A stretch of DNA of 64,000 bases from an uncultured delta proteobacterium (GTDB lineage: Bacteria; Myxococcota_A; Polyangia; Polyangiales; B10-G4). The notes under the pieces were generated by a model. That model did no database searches and had not been told where the DNA came from. It saw only the letters and a program-made list of their open reading frames with translations. The number at the start of each line of letters is the position of its first letter. The first letter of the stretch is position 1. Made by a program: the position numbers and the translations under genes. Shown piece by piece: positions 50,669 to 62,041 of the stretch. The stretch spans positions 320,001 to 384,000 of the forward strand of contig CAVSGI010000013.1 of the NCBI GenBank assembly GCA_963727445.1, read 5' to 3'.

Positions 50669-52477
50669 TCAGCCCTGCGCCACCGGACGCAGCTCCTCCG
50701 CACCGTGGAGCTCCGCGTAGCCGCGCCGGAGGCCGAAGCATTTCGTCTGCAGAGCGCAGCGGCCGCACTCGTCTGGGTGGACGAACTCGCCGCGGTCGAG
50801 CCCGTCGCGGATGTCTGCCAGCTCGAAGGCGTGGGAGAGCTCGGGAGGAACGAGGCAGAGCGGAATGCCGCACATCGACTCGAAGCCTCCGACGCTCACC
50901 CCGAGCGCGGCGGCTCGCTTCACGCCTTCGGCGAGGTCGGGCATGACGTCGCGGTAACGGGGGATGAGCTCCGGCGTGTGGGGGACGACGTCGCTGCTGG
51001 GCGCGACGAAGGAGACGACGATGGACGCCTGGGGCCAGCGATCGGCGACCATCTCCACGTACGACGGGAACTCGCGATGGTTGAGCTGGCAGAAGACGAA
51101 GTTCAGCCACACCGCCGCGCCCTGCCGCACGAGCTCGTCGATGCCGACGCAGGACTTGTCGAAGGTGCCGGGGGCGTTGGTGATCGCGTCCGATGTCTCC
51201 GCGCGCGCCGCGTGGAGCGAGATGAAGAACTCGTTCACGCCCGCCTCGAGGAGCGCGGCGGTGAGAGCGGGGTCGGCGAGGCGAATGGCATTGCTCTGGA
51301 GCTCGACGTCGGAGGCGCCGAAGGAACGACTGAGCTTCACGTATTCGACGAGGCGTGGGTTGAGCGTGGGCTCGCCGCCGGAGAGGACGACCTTGCCGCC
51401 GCGCTCGGCGATCCCCCGGATCGCCTCTTCCACCTGTGCGTCCTCGGCCGTGGGCAAGTGTGTGGACACGAAGCAGAAGTCACACGCCTGATTGCAACGG
51501 AAGTTCACGCGGACGATGCGGTACTCCTTCTGCGTGCCGTCGACGTGTCGGTTGACGTCCTCCTGAAAGAGCTCGCGCCGGACCTGCTCTGCCACGGTGG
51601 AGATGATGCTGAGCCTGCGCCGCACGCGGTCGCTTCGAATCGGGCGCACGGAGGCTTCGTCGAAGCGGCCAATCGTCACCTCCGGAAAGCCCGGACAGCG
51701 GTCCCGCACCGTGCAGTCGTCGCAGACCGCGGTGTGAGACCACCCCTCCTTCGGGCCACCGCCGCGCGTGAAGGAGAAGAGATGGGCCACCCGCGCGGGG
51801 TGCTCGAAGAAGCATGGGGGGATCAGCGCGCTCGCGTCGACCGAGAGATCGAGGCCGACCCGCCGGGCGCTCGCTTCCGTCTTCTCGACGACCGCCGCCG
51901 CGCGCGAAAGCGGCAAGAGAAGCGAGGGATCCGGCGAGCGCACCGGGACGCCCAGGACCAACGCCGCCGGCTCGACGCCCGCCGAGGCGAGCTGCGCGGG
52001 AAGCTCCGGCAGCGTGCGCTCGGTCGCGGCGACCACGGGCGCGGACACCTCAATCCGTATATTCGCGTCCGCCAGCGCCGCGATCCCCGCGCGCATCGCG
52101 TCGAAGCCGCCCGGGTCCTGCGTGATGTGGTCGAGCTCCGGACCCCACGTCGGGACGTGGACTCGCGCGAGGTCGAGACCGGCCTCCGCCAGCGCGTTCG
52201 CGCGGGCGTCGTCGAGGAGCGTGGCGTTCGTCTCCAGCTCGATGCGAAGGGCGCCCCGCTTCTTCGCGTAGGCGACGAGCTCCACCAGGTCGCGGCGGAG
52301 CGTCGGCTCGCCACCGGTCAGGACAATCGTCTCGGCGCCCTTGCTGAGCGCTGCGTCGATCCGCGCCCGCACGGCGTGCGGCGTCACGAAGAAACGGTCG
52401 TCTCGGGGCGCCCGCGCCGTACAGAACCCGCAGTTCTGGTTGCAACTCCGGTTCGTGAACACCCGCTCGACGCGCAT
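50669..52477 (-). CDS. Tandem double radical SAM protein
   Basis: CNQNCGFC + TGGEPTL and CNQACDFC + SGGEPTL; each half ends with CxxCx5CxG. Confidence 0.9.
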   Translation of the reverse strand: MRVERVFTNRSCNQNCGFCTARAPRDDRFFVTPHAVRARIDAALSKGAETIVLTGGEPTLRRDLVELVAYAKKRGALRIELETNATLLDDARANALAEAGLDLARVHVPTWGPELDHITQDPGGFDAMRAGIAALADANIRIEVSAPVVAATERTLPELPAQLASAGVEPAALVLGVPVRSPDPSLLLPLSRAAAVVEKTEASARRVGLDLSVDASALIPPCFFEHPARVAHLFSFTRGGGPKEGWSHTAVCDDCTVRDRCPGFPEVTIGRFDEASVRPIRSDRVRRRLSIISTVAEQVRRELFQEDVNRHVDGTQKEYRIVRVNFRCNQACDFCFVSTHLPTAEDAQVEEAIRGIAERGGKVVLSGGEPTLNPRLVEYVKLSRSFGASDVELQSNAIRLADPALTAALLEAGVNEFFISLHAARAETSDAITNAPGTFDKSCVGIDELVRQGAAVWLNFVFCQLNHREFPSYVEMVADRWPQASIVVSFVAPSSDVVPHTPELIPRYRDVMPDLAEGVKRAAALGVSVGGFESMCGIPLCLVPPELSHAFELADIRDGLDRGEFVHPDECGRCALQTKCFGLRRGYAELHGAEELRPVAQG

Positions 52478-52576
52478 CGCTTCGAGTGAAGTCTGCGCGG
52501 CCGAGCGCGGCTTTTCAATCGAGCGACGACGACCGACTCCGTTGCCCTCCCCGAGCGACCGTGGCAGCGTCGGCCC

Positions 52577-53636
52577 GTGAAGGCTCTTCGTCGGGCGGCG
52601 CTCTTCGCGCTGGCGTGGCTCGCTGCCTCCTGTGGCGCGCCCAGAGGTAGGGTGCCCGGTCCGACCTCGCCGCCGCCTGCGGAAGACGAAGCGGCGGCGC
52701 CGAGAGAGGGCGCTCGCACCCGAGGACGAAGCCCTGCTGGCGCGTCTGCCGGACGACACCATGCTGGTCATCGCGCTCGATCACGAGCGCCTCGCGGCGT
52801 CGCCGTATCACGGCGCCCTCGTCGGCGACGAGGCGATCCTCGTGCACACCGCGCTCGGAATGCACCTGCATCTCGATCCGGAGACCGACCTTCCCGAGGA
52901 CTTTCTGCGTCAGGCCGACAGGACGCTCATCGTGATCACCCTCGACGAGGTGGGCCTGAACGACCTCTTCGTCGCGGTCGAAGGGGCGCTCGACGCGGAC
53001 GTCGTCTCCGCGCTGGCGTCGTCGGCCGGCGCGAGCCTGCATGTGGGCGAAGACGGCGAGGGACGAATCGGCCCGATCGCCGAGGACGAGGTGGAGGCGA
53101 TCGGCGTCTATCGCCCGTCTTCCGGCCTGGCCTTCGGTCCGCTCGATCGTGAAGAGGAGATCGCCGCGCTGCTCTCGGATCAGCCCGCTCGGTCGCGCGG
53201 CGACTCGACCTTGCGCCGCGTGCTTTCACGAACGCCGAACACGACGGGAGCGCGGGCTTTCATCGCGAACACGCGGGGCCTCGCGGCCTATCTGCGCGAG
53301 ACCTTCGCCGCGCAGAACCTCACCACGGAGATCGTCGACACCCTGGTGGGCGTGACGCTGGAGCTCGACGTGGACGACGGCGCGACGCTCGAGCTGTCGG
53401 GGATCGCGAGCACGCCGGAAGCGGTCGAGACGCTCGCGGACCAGCTCGACGAGCTCATCGCTGGGGCGGCGGAGCAGCCGCTCCTCGTCGCCCTCGGCAT
53501 CGCGGCAGCGATCGAAGCGCGGGAGCGAACGGTGACCGACGACGAAGCACGCTTCGTCTTCCGCATGAGCGACACGGCCTTCCGCGCAGCGCTCGTGCGC
53601 ATGATGGGAGTCCTCGCGTCGGCAGCCTCCGAATGA
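52577..53636 (+). CDS. Hypothetical lipoprotein, frameshift near 52705
   Basis: Signal and lipobox LAAS-C in ORF 52577; body (LLARLPDDT...) in ORF 52632..53636. Confidence 0.6.
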
Positions 53637-55019: not shown

Positions 55020-55989
55020 GTGGAGGTCCTCGTGATCGTTCGCTTCGCCTCTCTCTTCGTCCTGTTCACCCTCTTCGCCTGCTCCGACGACGACTCGGTC
55101 GTCCTCGACGCCGAGCCCGACACCGCCGTCGGCGACGGGAGCATGGATGCGATGCCCGACGCGGACGTGCCCGATGCCTCGGACGCGACGCCAGACGGGA
55201 TGCGGAGCGATGGGATGGTCGCGGACGCGGCGATCGACGCCCCACCAGCCGACGCCACCCCCGACGCTGCGATGGACGCGACACCCGACGCCGTGGTGGA
55301 CGCGACCGCGGACGCGACCATGGACACCGGACGGGACGCGGTGGTGGTGGACGCCACCTCCGGCGTCTGTGGCGATGGCGTCCGCGATCCGGGTGAGGCC
55401 TGTGACTACGCGGTCGACCTGTGCTGCAACCGCAGCTGCACCGGGCCGGCCGCCGTACGCACGCTGTGCCGGGCGTCGGCGGGGATTCTGCGACCGCCCG
55501 GAGCGCTGCGACGGTACGTCGGTCGCGTGTCCCTCCGACGGATTCCGGTCGGCGAGCACCACATGTCGCGCCTCGGCCGGCGTCTGCGACCTCGCGGAGA
55601 ATTGTACCGGAAGCAGCGCGACGTGCCCGACCGATACGCTGGTCGCCGCCGGCACCGAGTGCCGAGCCAGCGCCGGCGTCTGCGATGTCGCCGAGAGCTG
55701 CACCGGCGCCTCCGTGCGATGCCCCGCCGACCGCCTCGCCCCGACGCGCACCGTGTGCCGCGCAGCGGCCGGCGGCTGCGACGTCGAGGAGACCTGCACC
55801 GGCACCTCCGTTCGCTGCCCCGCGGACGCCTACAGCGCGCCGCGCACCCTGTGCCGCGCCGCCGACCCGCTCACTTGCACCGCCGACGCGCGTTGCAGCG
55901 GCCTGAGCCCCGACTGCCCACCCAGCGCCTCGACCTGCACCGCCGGCCTGATCTGTTGCATGCCGGGATGCGCTCGCGTCTGCCCGTGA
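55020..55989 (+). CDS. Lipoprotein with disintegrin-like Cys repeats, frameshift near 55485
   Basis: Lipobox TLFA-C, D-rich linker, CGDGVRDPGEACD, repeated CRASAGVCDxAExCTGxSxxCPxD. Confidence 0.7.
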
Positions 55990-56023
55990 CCCGCGCGCGT
56001 CGACGCACGACAGCAGGCGCGCA

Positions 56024-58223
56024 TCAGTCCTCCTCTTCCTCGTCGTCGTCCTCGTACTCCTCGTCTTCCTCTTCTTCGTCCTCTTCTTCGTTCTCGTCGA
56101 AGAGGTCGATGTCCGGATTCGACCAGAAGCCGAAGGTCTTGATGAAGGCGAGCTCGTCGGCCTGAAGGAAGGTCGCGTCGGGGACGTCGTCGAGCTCGGT
56201 GAAGCCGAGACCGAACCAATCCGACTCCTCGGCCAGATCCTTCATCACCGCGACCACCTCGCCGTACCGCTCCTCGGGGGCCAGATCCTCGGACGCCTCG
56301 AGCAGCTGGCCGAGCCTTTCCGTCGGATCCTCGCCGTAGCTCATGAAGAAGCGAGCGAAACCGACCGCGTGCACGGGGACGTGGTCGACACGCTCTTCGA
56401 TCTCGGTCGGCAGCGCGATCTCGTCCAGCCCACACAGCCAGCAGAGCCAGGTGAGGCGGGTCCATTCCTGGCGGCAGAGATGATTGATGCCGACGCCGCC
56501 GAAATCCTCGGGGATCGCGACCTCCACCGGACCATCGGGCAGCAGGTGTGAGACGTCGGGCACGATCCAATCCGCTTCCCCGAAACGCTCCACCAGACGC
56601 TCTCGATGCCGCATGAGGCGTGTCGCGCTCTTCTGGATGGCTTCGTGAAAGCGCTCGACCTCCGCCGGGTTCTTGGCCTTCGTTCGATTCGAGGAGCTTC
56701 GAGAGGCGGTCGATGCTCTTGCGCCGCGAATCGTCGGTTGGCCAGAAGGTCCAGTCGGGGAAGAGCGCGTGGATGTAGGAGCCGATGCCCTTGGCGAACC
56801 CCTCGTCGTTCGCGCGGAGCCGCTCGACCGACTCGCGCGCGCCCGCCGCGTCGCCGAGGCTCGCGCGCACCAGCGCGCGCGTGTACTCGAACGACGCCGC
56901 CTCCTCTTCCGGCGCCGTGCGGATGGCGGCGTCGATGATCTCCGACGCCAGCTCCGACTCGTCCGCGTCGTCGAGAACGCCGGCCGCGAAGCGGAGCATC
57001 TCGAAAGGATCGCCGCCGCCGCGAATCACGTCGAAGGCAGCGTTGACGCATTTGTCGGGTCCTCCCCCGAAACGCGCGATGTTGGAGACGAGCATCCTGC
57101 CCATCTGGGTGGCGTGGACGGTCACGTTCGCGCTGACCGGACGCGCGAGCGTCGCGAAGGCCTGCCGGAGCTTCTCCGGCTCCGCCTCGCCCCGTCCCAC
57201 GGCGCGCGCCATCGCGAAGAGGGACGCGCCGACCTGCCGCTCCGAGGCCAGGCGCTCCGCGAGCGCCATGAAGCCGCTGGTCGCGCTGAGCACGCTCTGC
57301 GTGGCCTCGAGGTCGTTGGGGAGGCCGGTGTCGACGCTCGCCATGACGTTGCCGGCGCCGTCGAGGTACTCGATCACGCCCACCGGGTCGTCGTCGTCGA
57401 ACTCGCCACGCATGGCGTGGGCGGTTCCTTCTTCGACGTCGTCTTCGTCGAAGCGCACGAGGCGCGGTCCCTTCTTCTCTCCGAGGGCGTAGCTGACCTC
57501 TTCGAGGACGTTGCCGCCTTCATCGTAGGTGCGGGTGAGGCCGTGACGCTGACCGTCATGCCACTCGGCCTCCTCCACCAGAGCTCCGCTCTCCTCGTGG
57601 AAGATCTTCGCGGTGCCCTCGATGACGCCTGCCTCGTACGGCTCTTCGGTGACGAGCACCCCTTCGGTGTTCCACCAACGCCACACACCGGTGCGCGCGA
57701 TGGTTTCGTCGTCGTTGTCGATCACCGCGCCCGCCACCCAGCGGTACATGTCGTCCTCTTCCCGCTTGCGGAAGTGCGCGTCTTCGGGGACGCCCTGGGG
57801 CCGCGTGTCGGGGAAGGGCTCGCCATCCTCCATGCACTGGTTGCCGTCGGCGTCGTAGCACCGCGCAGCCACTACGCTGCCATGCTCGTAGTCCATCTCC
57901 GCGCGCTGCACCGCCTCGCCCAGCCCGTAGGGAAAGTTCTCCGTGGTCTGTGCGGACGAGCGCCGAAAGACGTTCGTTCCGTGGAGCTTTCCTTCGTCGA
58001 AGGCCCCCTCACGGGACACCTCGCCGTTTTCGTGAAAGCGCTTGAACGAGCCGTGGGGGGTTCCGTGGACGAACTCGGTTTCGCAGCAGAGCGTCCCGTC
58101 GGGGCGCCACCACTTCACGAGCCCGTGCTTGTCACCCGCGTCGTCCGATTCGTGGAGGCACCATTCGTCGTCATCTTCGTCCCAGTACGCGCCCTCGGGC
58201 ACGCTCGACGGTCGCTCGCGCAT
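56024..58223 (-). CDS. MORN-variant (YwqK-like) repeat protein with TPR-like region and acidic tail, frameshift near 56680
   Basis: HGLVKWWRPDG, HGSFKRFHENG, HGLTRTYDEGG repeats; continues in the frame of ORF 56024..56614. Confidence 0.7.
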
Positions 58224-58279: not shown

Positions 58280-60544
58280 TCAGGCCTCACGCGCCGAGAT
58301 CGACACGATCGCCACGCCCCCTTCGCTTCGGACCGCGACGCGCAGCCGGTCGTCCTCGTCTCGCGGACGCCACAGGACGCTCCGGCCCTCGCCCTCGATC
58401 ACACCGTCGGACTCCCAGCGCGTGCTCACGGCGGCGGGGCCTCCGTCGATGCGTACCTTCACGCCGTCGTCGGTCTGCTCGGCGACGACCAGGCGCACGG
58501 TGGGCGGACCCCACAAGCCCACGTCGCGGGAGCGCTCGGCCATCTTCGGCGAGCTGTCCCGCCACTGATCGATGATGCGCAAGCGAGGCCCCTCGCTCCC
58601 CGTCCCTTCGTTTTCGTCGAAGGCAGCCATGCCGCTGTCGGCCGGCGGCGGGTCCACCACCATGCCGGTATCTCCGTCGGCCCCCGCGTCGCCGGCCGCG
58701 TCTCCCGCCGCGTCGCCCGCGTCGAGGTCGCCGTCCATGCCGGCGTCCAAGGGCGGCGGATCGACCACCATGGTGTCCACCCCGGAATCGGCGGGCGGCG
58801 GGTCGACCACCATGGTGTCCATCCCCGAGTCCATCGGAACCGGATCGACCACGTCCTCGCCGCACGCCATCGTCCCGAACGCGAGCGTGGACGCGAGCAC
58901 GACGTTGCGCGCCATCTCGATGTACGCCGGCGTGGGCGCGCCGTCGCGAATGAGGACGTGCTCGCCCGAAGCGAAGCTCTCCATGCGGTCGCGGAGCGCG
59001 TCGAGGGCGACGTGCCACTTCTGGTCGGCCTCGGCGATCTCCAGACCGAGGACCGCGGTGTGGCGCGCGATGGCGTCGTGGTCGTGGGGGTCGAGGGTCT
59101 CGGCGAGCTTCGCCGCGCGCTCGAGGAAGTCGGCCGTCTCGTTGCTGATGCCGCGCGTGATGCGGTCCGCCTCGCGCCGCAGCGCCGGCAGCTGACCATG
59201 GGGGTCGTCGTAGAAGCGCTCGAGAACGTTTTGCGCGTAGCCCACGCCCATGTAGCGGTTGGCGACGCCCTGCGGGGCGAAGTTGCGCTCGCGGAAGGCC
59301 GCCGCCGAGATGCGGAAGAGGAGCTCGGCCCGATCGTCGTCCATGCGGTAGTTCCAGCCGAGGTAGCTACCACCCAGGTCCTGCACCGCGCCCATCTCCA
59401 GGTGAAGCGGTGTGCCGTAGTAGGGCTCGGCGCGACAGAAGTTCACCGGGTGCGAGGCGTGCTCGCGCATGAAGGCGATGTTCTCGCGCACATCCGAGAG
59501 CGTCGCGTGCGGCTCGAAGACGAGGAGGTTGTAGCAGACGAAGATCCCCGCGTCGTCGCAGGCGTCGAGCGCTGCACCGATCGCCTTGGTCTGCGTGCCG
59601 CGGCGCAGGTGATCCCCGCCCGCCTCGGAGGCGTTCTCCACGCCGACGTAGAGTCGGATCACGCCGAGGTCGGCGAGCTCCTGCGCCAGCTCCGCGGTGA
59701 TGGTGTCGGGTCGCGCCTTGCCGACGATGCCCAGGGTCCCGACGCCGTAGCGGTCGAGCTCCTCGCGCATGCGCCGGACGCGCGCGAGGGTGTCCTTCGG
59801 GCGGGGCAGCGTGAAGTTGTCGTCGTGGAAGCAGAAGATCGCGGGCTCGGCGGCCTCGTGCCAGAGGAGCGCCATCTCCTCGGCGACGTTCTCCGGGCTC
59901 CGCAGGCGGAAGGTCTTGCCGCCGCCGTAGGTGCGCGCGTCGCGGTAGAAGCTGGTGATGGAGCAGTAGCTGCACTTGCCCCAGCAGCCGCGGCTCGCCA
60001 TCAGCGGCACGAAAGGCACGCCGAAGTGGCGGCGGTGATCGCGGTAGCGGCGCGGGAAGGGGAGCGCGTCGAGGTCGTCTTCGAGGGCGCGCGGCGGCGT
60101 TCGAAAGACCGCACCGTCATCGGCGGCGAGGGCGAGACCGGGGATGTCGCCGAGCGGGGTGCCCGCTTCGAGGGCCGCCATGAGCTCGACGATGGTGCGC
60201 TCGCCCTCGTGTAGAACGACGGTGTCGACGCCGTGGCCACGCCCCACGACCTCACGCCACGCGAGGGTGGGGAACTGTCCACCCGCGGTGATGTGACCGC
60301 GGAAGCCGGCCGCGCGCAGGCGACGCGAGAGGCGCAGGAACTCGTGCGCCCGGTGTTGGAACTGGATCGCGAGACCGATCACGTCCGGCGCGAGTCCGAG
60401 CGCCCTGTCGGCGACCGCCTCCGCCTCGTCGGGCGTATTGAAGGAGACGAAGAACGCCTCGTGACCCGCCTCTTCCGCCGCCGCCGCGATCATGCCGATC
60501 CCGAGGTTCTCCTCGAAGTCCGCACCGATGAGCACCACCCGCAT
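58280..60544 (-). CDS. B12-binding radical SAM protein with a long C-terminal fusion (hydrophobic/lipobox segment, VVDPPP repeats, beta-domain)
   Basis: NLGIGMIAA, DVIGLA, TAGGQFPT, HEGE cobalamin-binding domain; SRGCWGKCSYC, FHDDNF, YVGVE. Confidence 0.9.
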   Translation of the reverse strand: MRVVLIGADFEENLGIGMIAAAAEEAGHEAFFVSFNTPDEAEAVADRALGLAPDVIGLAIQFQHRAHEFLRLSRRLRAAGFRGHITAGGQFPTLAWREVVGRGHGVDTVVLHEGERTIVELMAALEAGTPLGDIPGLALAADDGAVFRTPPRALEDDLDALPFPRRYRDHRRHFGVPFVPLMASRGCWGKCSYCSITSFYRDARTYGGGKTFRLRSPENVAEEMALLWHEAAEPAIFCFHDDNFTLPRPKDTLARVRRMREELDRYGVGTLGIVGKARPDTITAELAQELADLGVIRLYVGVENASEAGGDHLRRGTQTKAIGAALDACDDAGIFVCYNLLVFEPHATLSDVRENIAFMREHASHPVNFCRAEPYYGTPLHLEMGAVQDLGGSYLGWNYRMDDDRAELLFRISAAAFRERNFAPQGVANRYMGVGYAQNVLERFYDDPHGQLPALRREADRITRGISNETADFLERAAKLAETLDPHDHDAIARHTAVLGLEIAEADQKWHVALDALRDRMESFASGEHVLIRDGAPTPAYIEMARNVVLASTLAFGTMACGEDVVDPVPMDSGMDTMVVDPPPADSGVDTMVVDPPPLDAGMDGDLDAGDAAGDAAGDAGADGDTGMVVDPPPADSGMAAFDENEGTGSEGPRLRIIDQWRDSSPKMAERSRDVGLWGPPTVRLVVAEQTDDGVKVRIDGGPAAVSTRWESDGVIEGEGRSVLWRPRDEDDRLRVAVRSEGGVAIVSISAREA

Positions 60545-60619
60545 GGCAACCTCCCTCGCGGCGCGGACGCGCCGCTGGAAACGAGATGGGCACGGGTCAG
60601 CGGCGGGTCGTGTGCGTGC

Positions 60620-62041
60620 TCACGGAGTGGCGGGCCAGCGCGGCCAGATCTCGACTTCGCAGATGCCGGCGAGCTCCTCGAGACCGTCCGCGGGCTCCCA
60701 TTTCTGGTCTGTCGCGCGAAAGATGGCACCGACGTCCGATGCGTCCGGAGCGGCCATCCAGTTGCCGCCGAAGAAGCGCTCGCCGCTCGCCCACCGCCGG
60801 ACTCCTCCGCTCAGGCGGAGCCCGATGTAGGACCGCCCGGTTCCTCCGAAGAGCATGGCCGCCGCCGCCGCCTCCTCCGGCGTGTGGATACTCGCCCCGA
60901 ACATCTCGAGCTCCGCGCATCGTTGCTCGAGTCGCTCCTCCCAGTCGGACGCTGTGCCGAGGCCGGGTGGCGTCGCTTGCACGAAGCAGTGGAGACCGTC
61001 GGCGCTCTCGACGCTACCGCTTCGCCCCTCGCATGGGGTGTAGACGGTGGATGGACAGCTGCCCACACAGAAATGCGCCCGCATGAGCACAGCGCCGAGC
61101 CCAGGCGCCTGGCGGTTCATCGGCCACTCCCGCGTGTACCAGAGCTCGTTCGCACCCTCGTGATGGAACGGCAGCCAGCCGTCGGCGCCGAGGGCCTCGT
61201 TGAAGCGCGAGAAGCTGCCTCGACCAGCGAAGCTCGTGTCCCGCGACGCGCGCGTGACTTCGTAGTGCGTCACGCCATCGCGATAGGTGAGCACCAACCC
61301 ATCGCGCGAGAGCCGGGGCTCGGTGGCCTCGGAGGCGTCCCCGGTGTCGACCGGGACGGCTGCCGGAAAGGCCGTGCCGCGCATCGAACGCTCCGTGATC
61401 TGCAGCTGGCCCCCGACTTGCGCCACCAGGGTCAATCCGTCGCCCGACACCGATGGATGCTGCGCGCCAGTCGGGAAGGCATCGACCGGATCGAGGTCCC
61501 CGAACGTGCCCATGCGCAGGCCTCGCGACGCACTGCGGATGCGGATGACGTCGTCGGGGTCGAGCGACTCGACGTAGACCAGCAAACCGTCGCCGGTGAG
61601 CGTGGCGCGTTGGATGCGGTATTCGCTCGGCGTGAGGGGGACCTGCTCGGGCGCGTCGAACTCCCCGAAGCTTCCGTCGGTCGTGTCGTAAATGCGCGCC
61701 GCCGTCCACAGCTCCCCGCTGAAGGGGTCACGGTCGTCGACCCGCGTGAAGAAGAGCTGGGTCCCGTCGGTGGTGAGCTCCGGTGCGTAGTGGCTCGAGG
61801 CCGTGCTCAGCGCGCGGGAGGGAACATGGAGCGAGATGGGCTGATGGACGAGGCCCAGGTCGAAGGGGCCCGCGTCGACCGAGCCGTCGGCCCCGGCGTC
61901 CGCGGCATCCGGCGAGGAATCGAGGGTTGCATCGCGCGAGGCGTCCTCTACGCCGCTGTCCGTGCCCCCATCGTCGAGGAAGACGGGTTTCGTGCACCCA
62001 GCGAGAACGAGGACGAAGACGGCAGTCGCGAAGCGCACCAC
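60620..62041 (-). CDS. Lipoprotein with PD40-type propeller and C-type-lectin-like C-terminal domain
   Basis: Lipobox VLAG-C; PELTTDG, PSVSGDG, PRLSRDG; HCF...C...ASIHT.EE...YIGL...WASGE...ICE. Confidence 0.7.
   Translation of the reverse strand: MVRFATAVFVLVLAGCTKPVFLDDGGTDSGVEDASRDATLDSSPDAADAGADGSVDAGPFDLGLVHQPISLHVPSRALSTASSHYAPELTTDGTQLFFTRVDDRDPFSGELWTAARIYDTTDGSFGEFDAPEQVPLTPSEYRIQRATLTGDGLLVYVESLDPDDVIRIRSASRGLRMGTFGDLDPVDAFPTGAQHPSVSGDGLTLVAQVGGQLQITERSMRGTAFPAAVPVDTGDASEATEPRLSRDGLVLTYRDGVTHYEVTRASRDTSFAGRGSFSRFNEALGADGWLPFHHEGANELWYTREWPMNRQAPGLGAVLMRAHFCVGSCPSTVYTPCEGRSGSVESADGLHCFVQATPPGLGTASDWEERLEQRCAELEMFGASIHTPEEAAAAAMLFGGTGRSYIGLRLSGGVRRWASGERFFGGNWMAAPDASDVGAIFRATDQKWEPADGLEELAGICEVEIWPRWPATP

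Follow-up and report, generated by a model that had tools for sequence, protein, structure and literature searches.

A cobalamin-dependent radical SAM enzyme of Myxococcota fused to a lipoprotein-like tail with repeated Asp-Pro-x-Pro motifs, its probable substrate

A single gene on the reverse strand (58280..60544) of the window, the whole 64,000-nucleotide stretch of DNA analysed here, encodes a protein of 754 amino acids (P0001) in which a B12-binding domain, a radical SAM domain and a helical domain are followed in the same chain by a hydrophobic segment leading to Cys561; behind this cysteine lie four VVDPxP repeats and, last, an Ig/PKD-like domain. Judged by its relatives, this fusion of an enzyme with a lipoprotein-like tail is real, conserved and old. 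The tail with its repeats is quite probably the substrate of the enzyme, and the reading that we favour, with a confidence somewhat above even, is that the B12 radical SAM enzyme modifies the Asp-Pro-x-Pro repeats, after which the tail is exported and cut off as a lipoprotein.

Results

The frame begins with an ATG preceded, at a distance of 5 nt, by the Shine-Dalgarno-like sequence GGGAGG (60550..60555, reverse strand); a scan for promoter and terminator found nothing. The original prediction for this DNA, that enzyme and tail share one open reading frame, holds, since the 754-residue frame has no stop and is shared by all homologues compared. GC3 in frame is 0.82-1.0 over the full length, junction and tail included. 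A protein search with the fusion gave 708 matches, and among the best 120 of these (49-87% identity, 643-824 aa) the tail is fused to the enzyme in 120/120. The hydrophobic segment ending in Cys and 2-10 copies of DPxP, features proposed to be checked in homologues, are kept in all 121 sequences (query and best 120 of 708), with a total of 537 DPxP copies and spacers of very different make-up. The named loci of these relatives belong mostly to Myxococcota, chiefly Polyangiales, and to metagenome-assembled genomes of Deltaproteobacteria.

By domain layout and modelled fold, the enzyme part is a class B (cobalamin-dependent) radical SAM enzyme, predicted as such to bind cobalamin and a [4Fe-4S] cluster and to cleave SAM. 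As in class B enzymes, a cobalamin-binding Rossmann domain (Pfam residues 12-121, E 1.8e-16; 60182..60511, reverse strand) precedes a radical SAM core (Pfam residues 184-356, E 4.8e-15; 59477..59995, reverse strand), both above the Pfam cut-off. The former displays G57-x-A59-x-Q61-x-Q63, GG88-89 and GE114-115, motifs as defined in the available part of PMC9204698, and the latter CxxxCxxC at 187/191/194 and the conserved K276, R297, Y299 and N339, with R371 and E373 conserved just outside the Pfam Radical_SAM match. The structure model adds a helical C-terminal enzyme domain (residues 404-526; 58967..59335, reverse strand), near which the stand-alone enzymes of split forms (514-569 aa) end. In fold comparison the enzyme matches OxsB (5ul3), TsrM (6wte), MgmA/QCMT (9ccb), CysS (9n1b) and TokK (7kdx) with Z 20-23 and an rmsd of 3.5-4.8 Å over 378-476 aligned residues, OxsB, TsrM, MgmA and CysS tying at Z 22-23. 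Sequence identity to class B enzymes of known structure is only 13-20%, the closest PDB sequence match being 9ccb, which is MgmA and methylates a Gln of methyl-coenzyme M reductase. None of the NCBIfam B12-rSAM families HpnJ, HpnR, BchE, ApyD, rSAM_ocin_1 and MgmA comes near its cut-off (best 91 bits versus 577.6), and the split-form enzyme likewise stays below every named NCBIfam B12-rSAM cut-off. Lys276 and Arg371 occur without exception (44/44 enzymes) and Arg297 in 41; located on barrel strands in the structure model, the three residues may face a substrate carboxylate.

The four repeats that had been predicted after the cysteine are VVDPVP at residue 565 (58835..58852) and VVDPPP at residues 579 (58793..58810), 593 (58751..58768) and 629 (58643..58660), all on the reverse strand. 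By chance, four DPxP arise in 6/100,000 shuffles of the 84-residue repeat region. In the sequences compared, the acidic residue and Pro(+3), rather than Val, are the conserved core features: given the flanks, Asp is present in 480/480, Pro(+3) in 480/480 and Pro(+1) in 480/489 motifs, with Val(-1) in 364/502, and paralogue clades have Glu in place of Asp (EMAP-type motif). Val as the target of modification, as initially proposed, is thus disfavoured. Genome-wide, the pattern [VIA][VASC]DP[PAVLMI]P occurs in 24 of 7,792 coding-like frames, with more than one copy in the fusion gene only; the search for other VVDP-type proteins has therefore retrieved single-motif frames, and no other multi-core protein was found among the 7,792. 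A lipoprotein-like protein on contig C21 of genome G000 (304060-306318, forward strand) carries a single CVVDPPPD just after its Cys-rich start; it is possibly a substrate in trans, or a chance occurrence.

The structure model of the full chain (mean pLDDT 85.9, pTM 0.83) consists of the helical domain to residue 526, a helix at 539-560, disorder over 561-659 and a beta domain up to the C-terminus. The beta-rich domain that had been anticipated behind the repeats emerges, by model and fold search, as an Ig/PKD-like beta-sandwich joined to a conserved linker (IDQW..R..D.PL..PP; residues 655-754; 58283..58582, reverse strand), with six or seven strands, pLDDT > 90 and a middling best Z of 6-7 to many Ig/PKD domains; Atlas PKD clusters match it at 0.83-0.85, to be taken as a lead only, and no Pfam match was found. 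The model suggests that this end domain is likely to dock on the enzyme, in the role of a follower element. The pTM of 0.83 falls within the 0.79-0.89 expected for a docked end domain and exceeds the 0.69-0.80 for an undocked one, under rough assumptions. Residues 671-680 have a pLDDT of 91 with the enzyme versus 79 in the tail alone, and residues 531-550 have 92/91 versus 67/83, values from alignments of unequal depth (87 and 40 rows). For residues 551-560 the model has low confidence (64). With all repeats below pLDDT 50, it does not position any core in the active site, and in the analysis of enzyme-tail covariation, at an effective depth of 83, the top cross-domain pairs were not clearly above the rest.

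How enzyme and tail are arranged elsewhere was assessed in a sample of 401 genomes of the phylum, in which 55 enzyme places in 39 genomes were all read by eye; a second query on the same sample returned nearly the same enzyme set. Both arrangements that the original prediction had proposed to look for, a tail in cis or as an adjacent open reading frame, were found: 53 of the 55 enzyme copies possess a lipoprotein-like partner, fused in 39 and encoded by an adjacent gene in 14. The places comprise 29 fused Asp-type (that of the window included), 10 fused Glu-clade, 10 adjacent Asp-type and 4 adjacent Glu-type forms, one partnerless enzyme and one cut by a contig end, with EMAP, AEAAP, TEMV and similar motifs in the fused Glu-type clades. 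Nearly all partners carry a small-[D/E]-x-x-P motif, clear in 49/53 and deviant in four (L100, L119, L123 and L127), on changing scaffolds, as behind the motif stands an Ig-like domain, another domain or none. At a split locus, L066, the end of the gene for a 547-aa enzyme overlaps with that for a separate 212-aa protein equipped with an N-terminal signal, a Cys, DP(M)P repeats and a beta domain of the same kind, a protein with 14 relatives among stand-alone proteins. A metagenome scan with the split-precursor alignment gave 7 loci, two with an enzyme end directly upstream, one cut and four being unrelated PKD-like matches. A tree of 37 enzymes, chosen from the 111 that were aligned, requires at least three changes between fused and separate forms and two between Asp and Glu.

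Several loci vary this theme. At L100, L112, L122 and L124 the Glu-type partner is encoded upstream of its enzyme; ahead of the partner's beta domain stands a Cys-flanked core, CxxCxx(I)AEMAP or a variant, CEKIACP. A fused Glu-type protein at L105 (1336-4212, forward strand) contains four THMCEMAP cores, the spacers of which are folded-looking domains of approximately 100 residues. The sole enzyme copy without a partner nearby (L114 / L168, G385:C89) is preceded by frames which we take to be an Mrr-like nuclease and a transposase-like protein, which suggests that the partner gene has been displaced.

As a tail of this kind is encoded in relatives by a gene next to that of the enzyme, an enzyme combined with its own substrate is the best reading of the fusion, and as the short motif tracks the enzyme in cis and in trans while its surroundings change, it is the tail that is read as this substrate. 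It is unlikely that the tail serves instead as a membrane anchor or partner of an enzyme that acts on a lipid or small molecule, in the manner of HpnJ/HpnR (hopanoid) or BchE. HpnJ, HpnR and BchE are indeed among the best NCBIfam matches, but with 83-91 bits versus cut-offs of 481-650, and no lipid-pathway neighbours recur in 73 loci. Asp-Ala-Gly-rich linkers, as would befit a spacer, are also present in other lipoprotein-like frames of the window and the repeats are left undocked in the model; an Asp in every motif would, however, be needless for a mere spacer, and the split-form enzyme has no anchor, yet its neighbour gene retains [D/E]xxP on unrelated scaffolds.

The signal-like helix (residues 539-560) and the lipobox-like Cys561 (58862..58930, reverse strand, with the codon of Cys561 at 58864) correspond to a lipobox-like hydrophobic-Cys segment noted originally, and conservation bears this designation out. 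In the query and the best 120 of 708 matches, Cys ends the segment in 121/121 and is preceded by Gly/Ala at -1 in 119/121; the net charge ahead of the h-region is at least +2 in 113/121 and a charged residue within the h-region is found in 3/121. Such a pattern of charge and Cys is expected from the positive-inside rule and the specificity of Lgt and LspA if an internal signal-anchor carries a lipobox, and its occurrence here is the reason to read the segment as one. This assignment is built on sequence signs (Cys, -1 residue, charge). The genome contains genes for Lgt and LspA, and the putative SPII-type signal with its lipobox-like Cys is internal in fused and N-terminal in split forms. Less typical features are L/V/I at -3 in only 44/121 and T-M-A-C as the lipobox of the window protein. 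Export and lipidation of the tail are on these grounds reasonably likely.

That the repeats are modified with the hydrophobic helix acting merely as an enzyme-docking leader or uncleaved anchor, with neither lipidation nor release, appears unlikely as well. Such a role would suit the helix start, predicted with confidence in the full model but less well in the tail alone, the modest hydrophobicity (best 12-residue mean 1.8) and the loss of the basic n-region in the lineage of the window (P0001-P0003), where the net charge ahead of the h-region is 0 to -1. The lipobox end, on the other hand, is not buried, given the low confidence of residues 551-560, and the same segment stands N-terminally in split forms like an ordinary lipoprotein signal. 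Signal peptidase II requires a Cys with Gly/Ala at -1, so that their conservation would be superfluous for a pure leader.

On comparison, the ATG at 58915 (Met544) did not prove to be a conserved internal start. Met occupies this column in only 6/120 homologues, and a ribosome site with a start codon before the Cys was found in 4/39 loci; the two controls gave 1/39 each, and the true start 32/39. An internal start conserved in the whole family is rejected by these counts, which leaves the lineage of P0001-P0003. In all three, a compact signal of 18 residues comes after Met544, and the upstream basic residues are gone. Even for this lineage, we regard it as quite improbable that the tail is produced separately from Met544 and then modified in trans by the full-length protein; no Shine-Dalgarno-like site precedes the internal ATG in the window.

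Across 73 loci no conserved neighbour genes were found, the largest shared cluster besides enzyme and antisense frames being Ser/Thr kinases (12 loci, varying places), and the fusion unit therefore seems self-contained. Directly upstream on the same strand of the window lies a 473-aa lipoprotein-like frame (60620-62041, reverse strand) without Pfam/NCBIfam match and without DPxP, which did not turn up as a common neighbour at the loci of relatives. A 700-aa frame (50669-52771, reverse strand) has two tandem radical SAM domains, with HxsC4/HxsC (His-Xaa-Ser system) as best NCBIfam match, below cut-off. A MORN-repeat protein is distributed over 55830-58223 and 56024-56614 (both reverse strand), with a codon bias that collapses near 56700, where another frame takes over; this break is likely a frameshift or assembly indel. 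On the forward strand, the frames 55020-56165, with a lipoprotein-like start and Asp-Ala linkers, and 55147-55989, with disintegrin-like Cys repeats (Pfam E 3.6e-22), are probably one gene with a frameshift. Although these two frameshifted-looking neighbours indicate that the assembly may carry indels, a lost stop erroneously joining the enzyme to an unrelated lipoprotein can be dismissed with near certainty on the evidence of homologues, since the same fusion comes from many sources and GC3 remains high through the junction.

Discussion

In the favoured sequence of modification and export, the end domain and the first part of the signal helix would pack on the enzyme, as the model suggests, and keep the floppy repeats close. 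While still in the cytoplasm, each motif would be C-methylated by way of a 5'-deoxyadenosyl radical and methylcobalamin; the invariant Asp is the most likely site, and Pro(+3) comes second. The internal signal would then act as a signal-anchor and the tail cross the inner membrane, as in established lipoprotein biology; lipidation of Cys561 by Lgt and cleavage by LspA would free a modified lipoprotein of 194 residues, the oxygen-sensitive enzyme staying on the cytoplasmic side.

With regard to the reaction, C-methylation is, by analogy, given a modest preference. Radical methylases constitute the majority of class B enzymes (PMC9204698, available part), and QCMT places a methyl group on the C-alpha of residues within peptides, Asp and Glu of test peptides among them (PMC13469106, available part), which is why C-methylation at Asp was chosen. 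By motif alignment, the lower-face cobalamin positions are Gln61/Gln63, versus bulky Trp/Arg in TokK/TsrM, and at TokK/CysS-type positions Gln63 lies under the cobalt and Ile196 two residues after the Cys loop, versus Trp76 and Trp in TokK. As Trp76 of TokK tolerates several substitutions (PMC9204698, available part), Gln63/Ile196 do not exclude methylation. Nevertheless, the small residues beneath the cobalt may be closer to OxsB, which is not a methylase, than to TokK/TsrM and may permit a non-methylating reaction; PMC13331322, in its available part, also bears on these residues and on such chemistry. All Glu-type enzymes (12/12) have Phe at position 299, where Tyr is found in 23/25 of the Asp-type, a difference that comes from only 1-2 independent pairs and is not significant; co-evolution of Tyr/Phe299 with the Asp/Glu motif was dropped for this reason despite a steric fit. 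A more far-reaching reading, and a rather doubtful one, would have the chain as a self-processing lipoprotein RiPP that unites maturase, signal doubling as leader, multi-core precursor and follower, acts on Asp/Glu by a new reaction other than methylation (cross-link, rearrangement or decarboxylation), with Tyr/Phe as barrel switch, and yields a modified surface lipoprotein across Myxococcota.

The design of enzyme, signal and repeat tail is undescribed in the literature searched and falls under RiPP-like protein modification. This literature contained few subscription papers, and PMC13056109 without its supplements on mined DAG-RiPP clusters; within it no description of the fusion family was found, and PMC12710340 mentions neither B12 nor cobalamin nor lipoprotein. 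The family is common, being present in 39 of the 401 genomes sampled from the phylum, and would bring its own short substrates along, which makes the proposal directly testable. If true, it could lead to a catalyst that functionalises C-H bonds selectively at Asp/Glu or Pro and reveal a so far unrecognised kind of modification on the surface proteins of myxobacteria, and it would show a lipoprotein signal that functions 540 residues inside a cytoplasmic enzyme.

With class B enzymes the fusion shares the Rossmann, TIM barrel and helical cap fold and the GG and GE motifs. PoyC and the bottromycin methylases are named among this class in the available part of PMC9204698; none of OxsB, TsrM, MgmA/QCMT, CysS, TokK, PoyC and the bottromycin methylases carries its own substrate or an export signal.

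The proposed route resembles that of the DAG-RiPPs (DybA/DybH, NedABC; PMC13056109, PNAS 2026), RiPP-lipoprotein hybrids in which, according to the available part of this work, a precursor with a lipoprotein signal is modified at a short motif by an enzyme of the cytoplasm, a precedent for cytoplasmic modification followed by lipoprotein processing; some of the precursors are folded proteins and some myxobacterial motifs are internal. The DAG-RiPPs characterised to date, however, use an MNIO (ChrH-type) enzyme, a Cys-based motif and a separate precursor gene (PMC13056109, available part), whereas the enzyme of the myxobacterial fusion is a B12 rSAM and its motif is acidic and multi-copy, with the signal buried 540 residues into the enzyme chain. 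The main text of PMC13056109 contains none of the terms 'radical SAM', 'rSAM', 'cobalamin' and 'fused'. If the proposal is true, lipoprotein-linked RiPP chemistry would extend from MNIOs to B12 radical enzymes.

The layout is that of the borosins, which, in the available part of PMC8429565, unite enzyme and core in one chain, occur elsewhere in split two-gene forms and act iteratively on the core. In-frame enzyme and core with split forms elsewhere are also found here, a likeness of architecture only. Borosins rely on a non-radical SAM alpha-N-methyltransferase that acts on backbone amides and has no B12 or Fe-S, and no internal lipoprotein signal is seen for them (PMC8429565, available part). 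An OphMA-like alpha-N-methyltransferase domain is absent from the fusion, in which only B12-binding and Radical_SAM were found and the fold matches rSAM, so that the fusion would, if correctly read, be a radical-enzyme counterpart of the borosin fusion. By analogy, it appears to work like a DAG-RiPP in its route and like a borosin in its layout, and is a member of neither, since the enzyme that defines each of them is replaced here by another.
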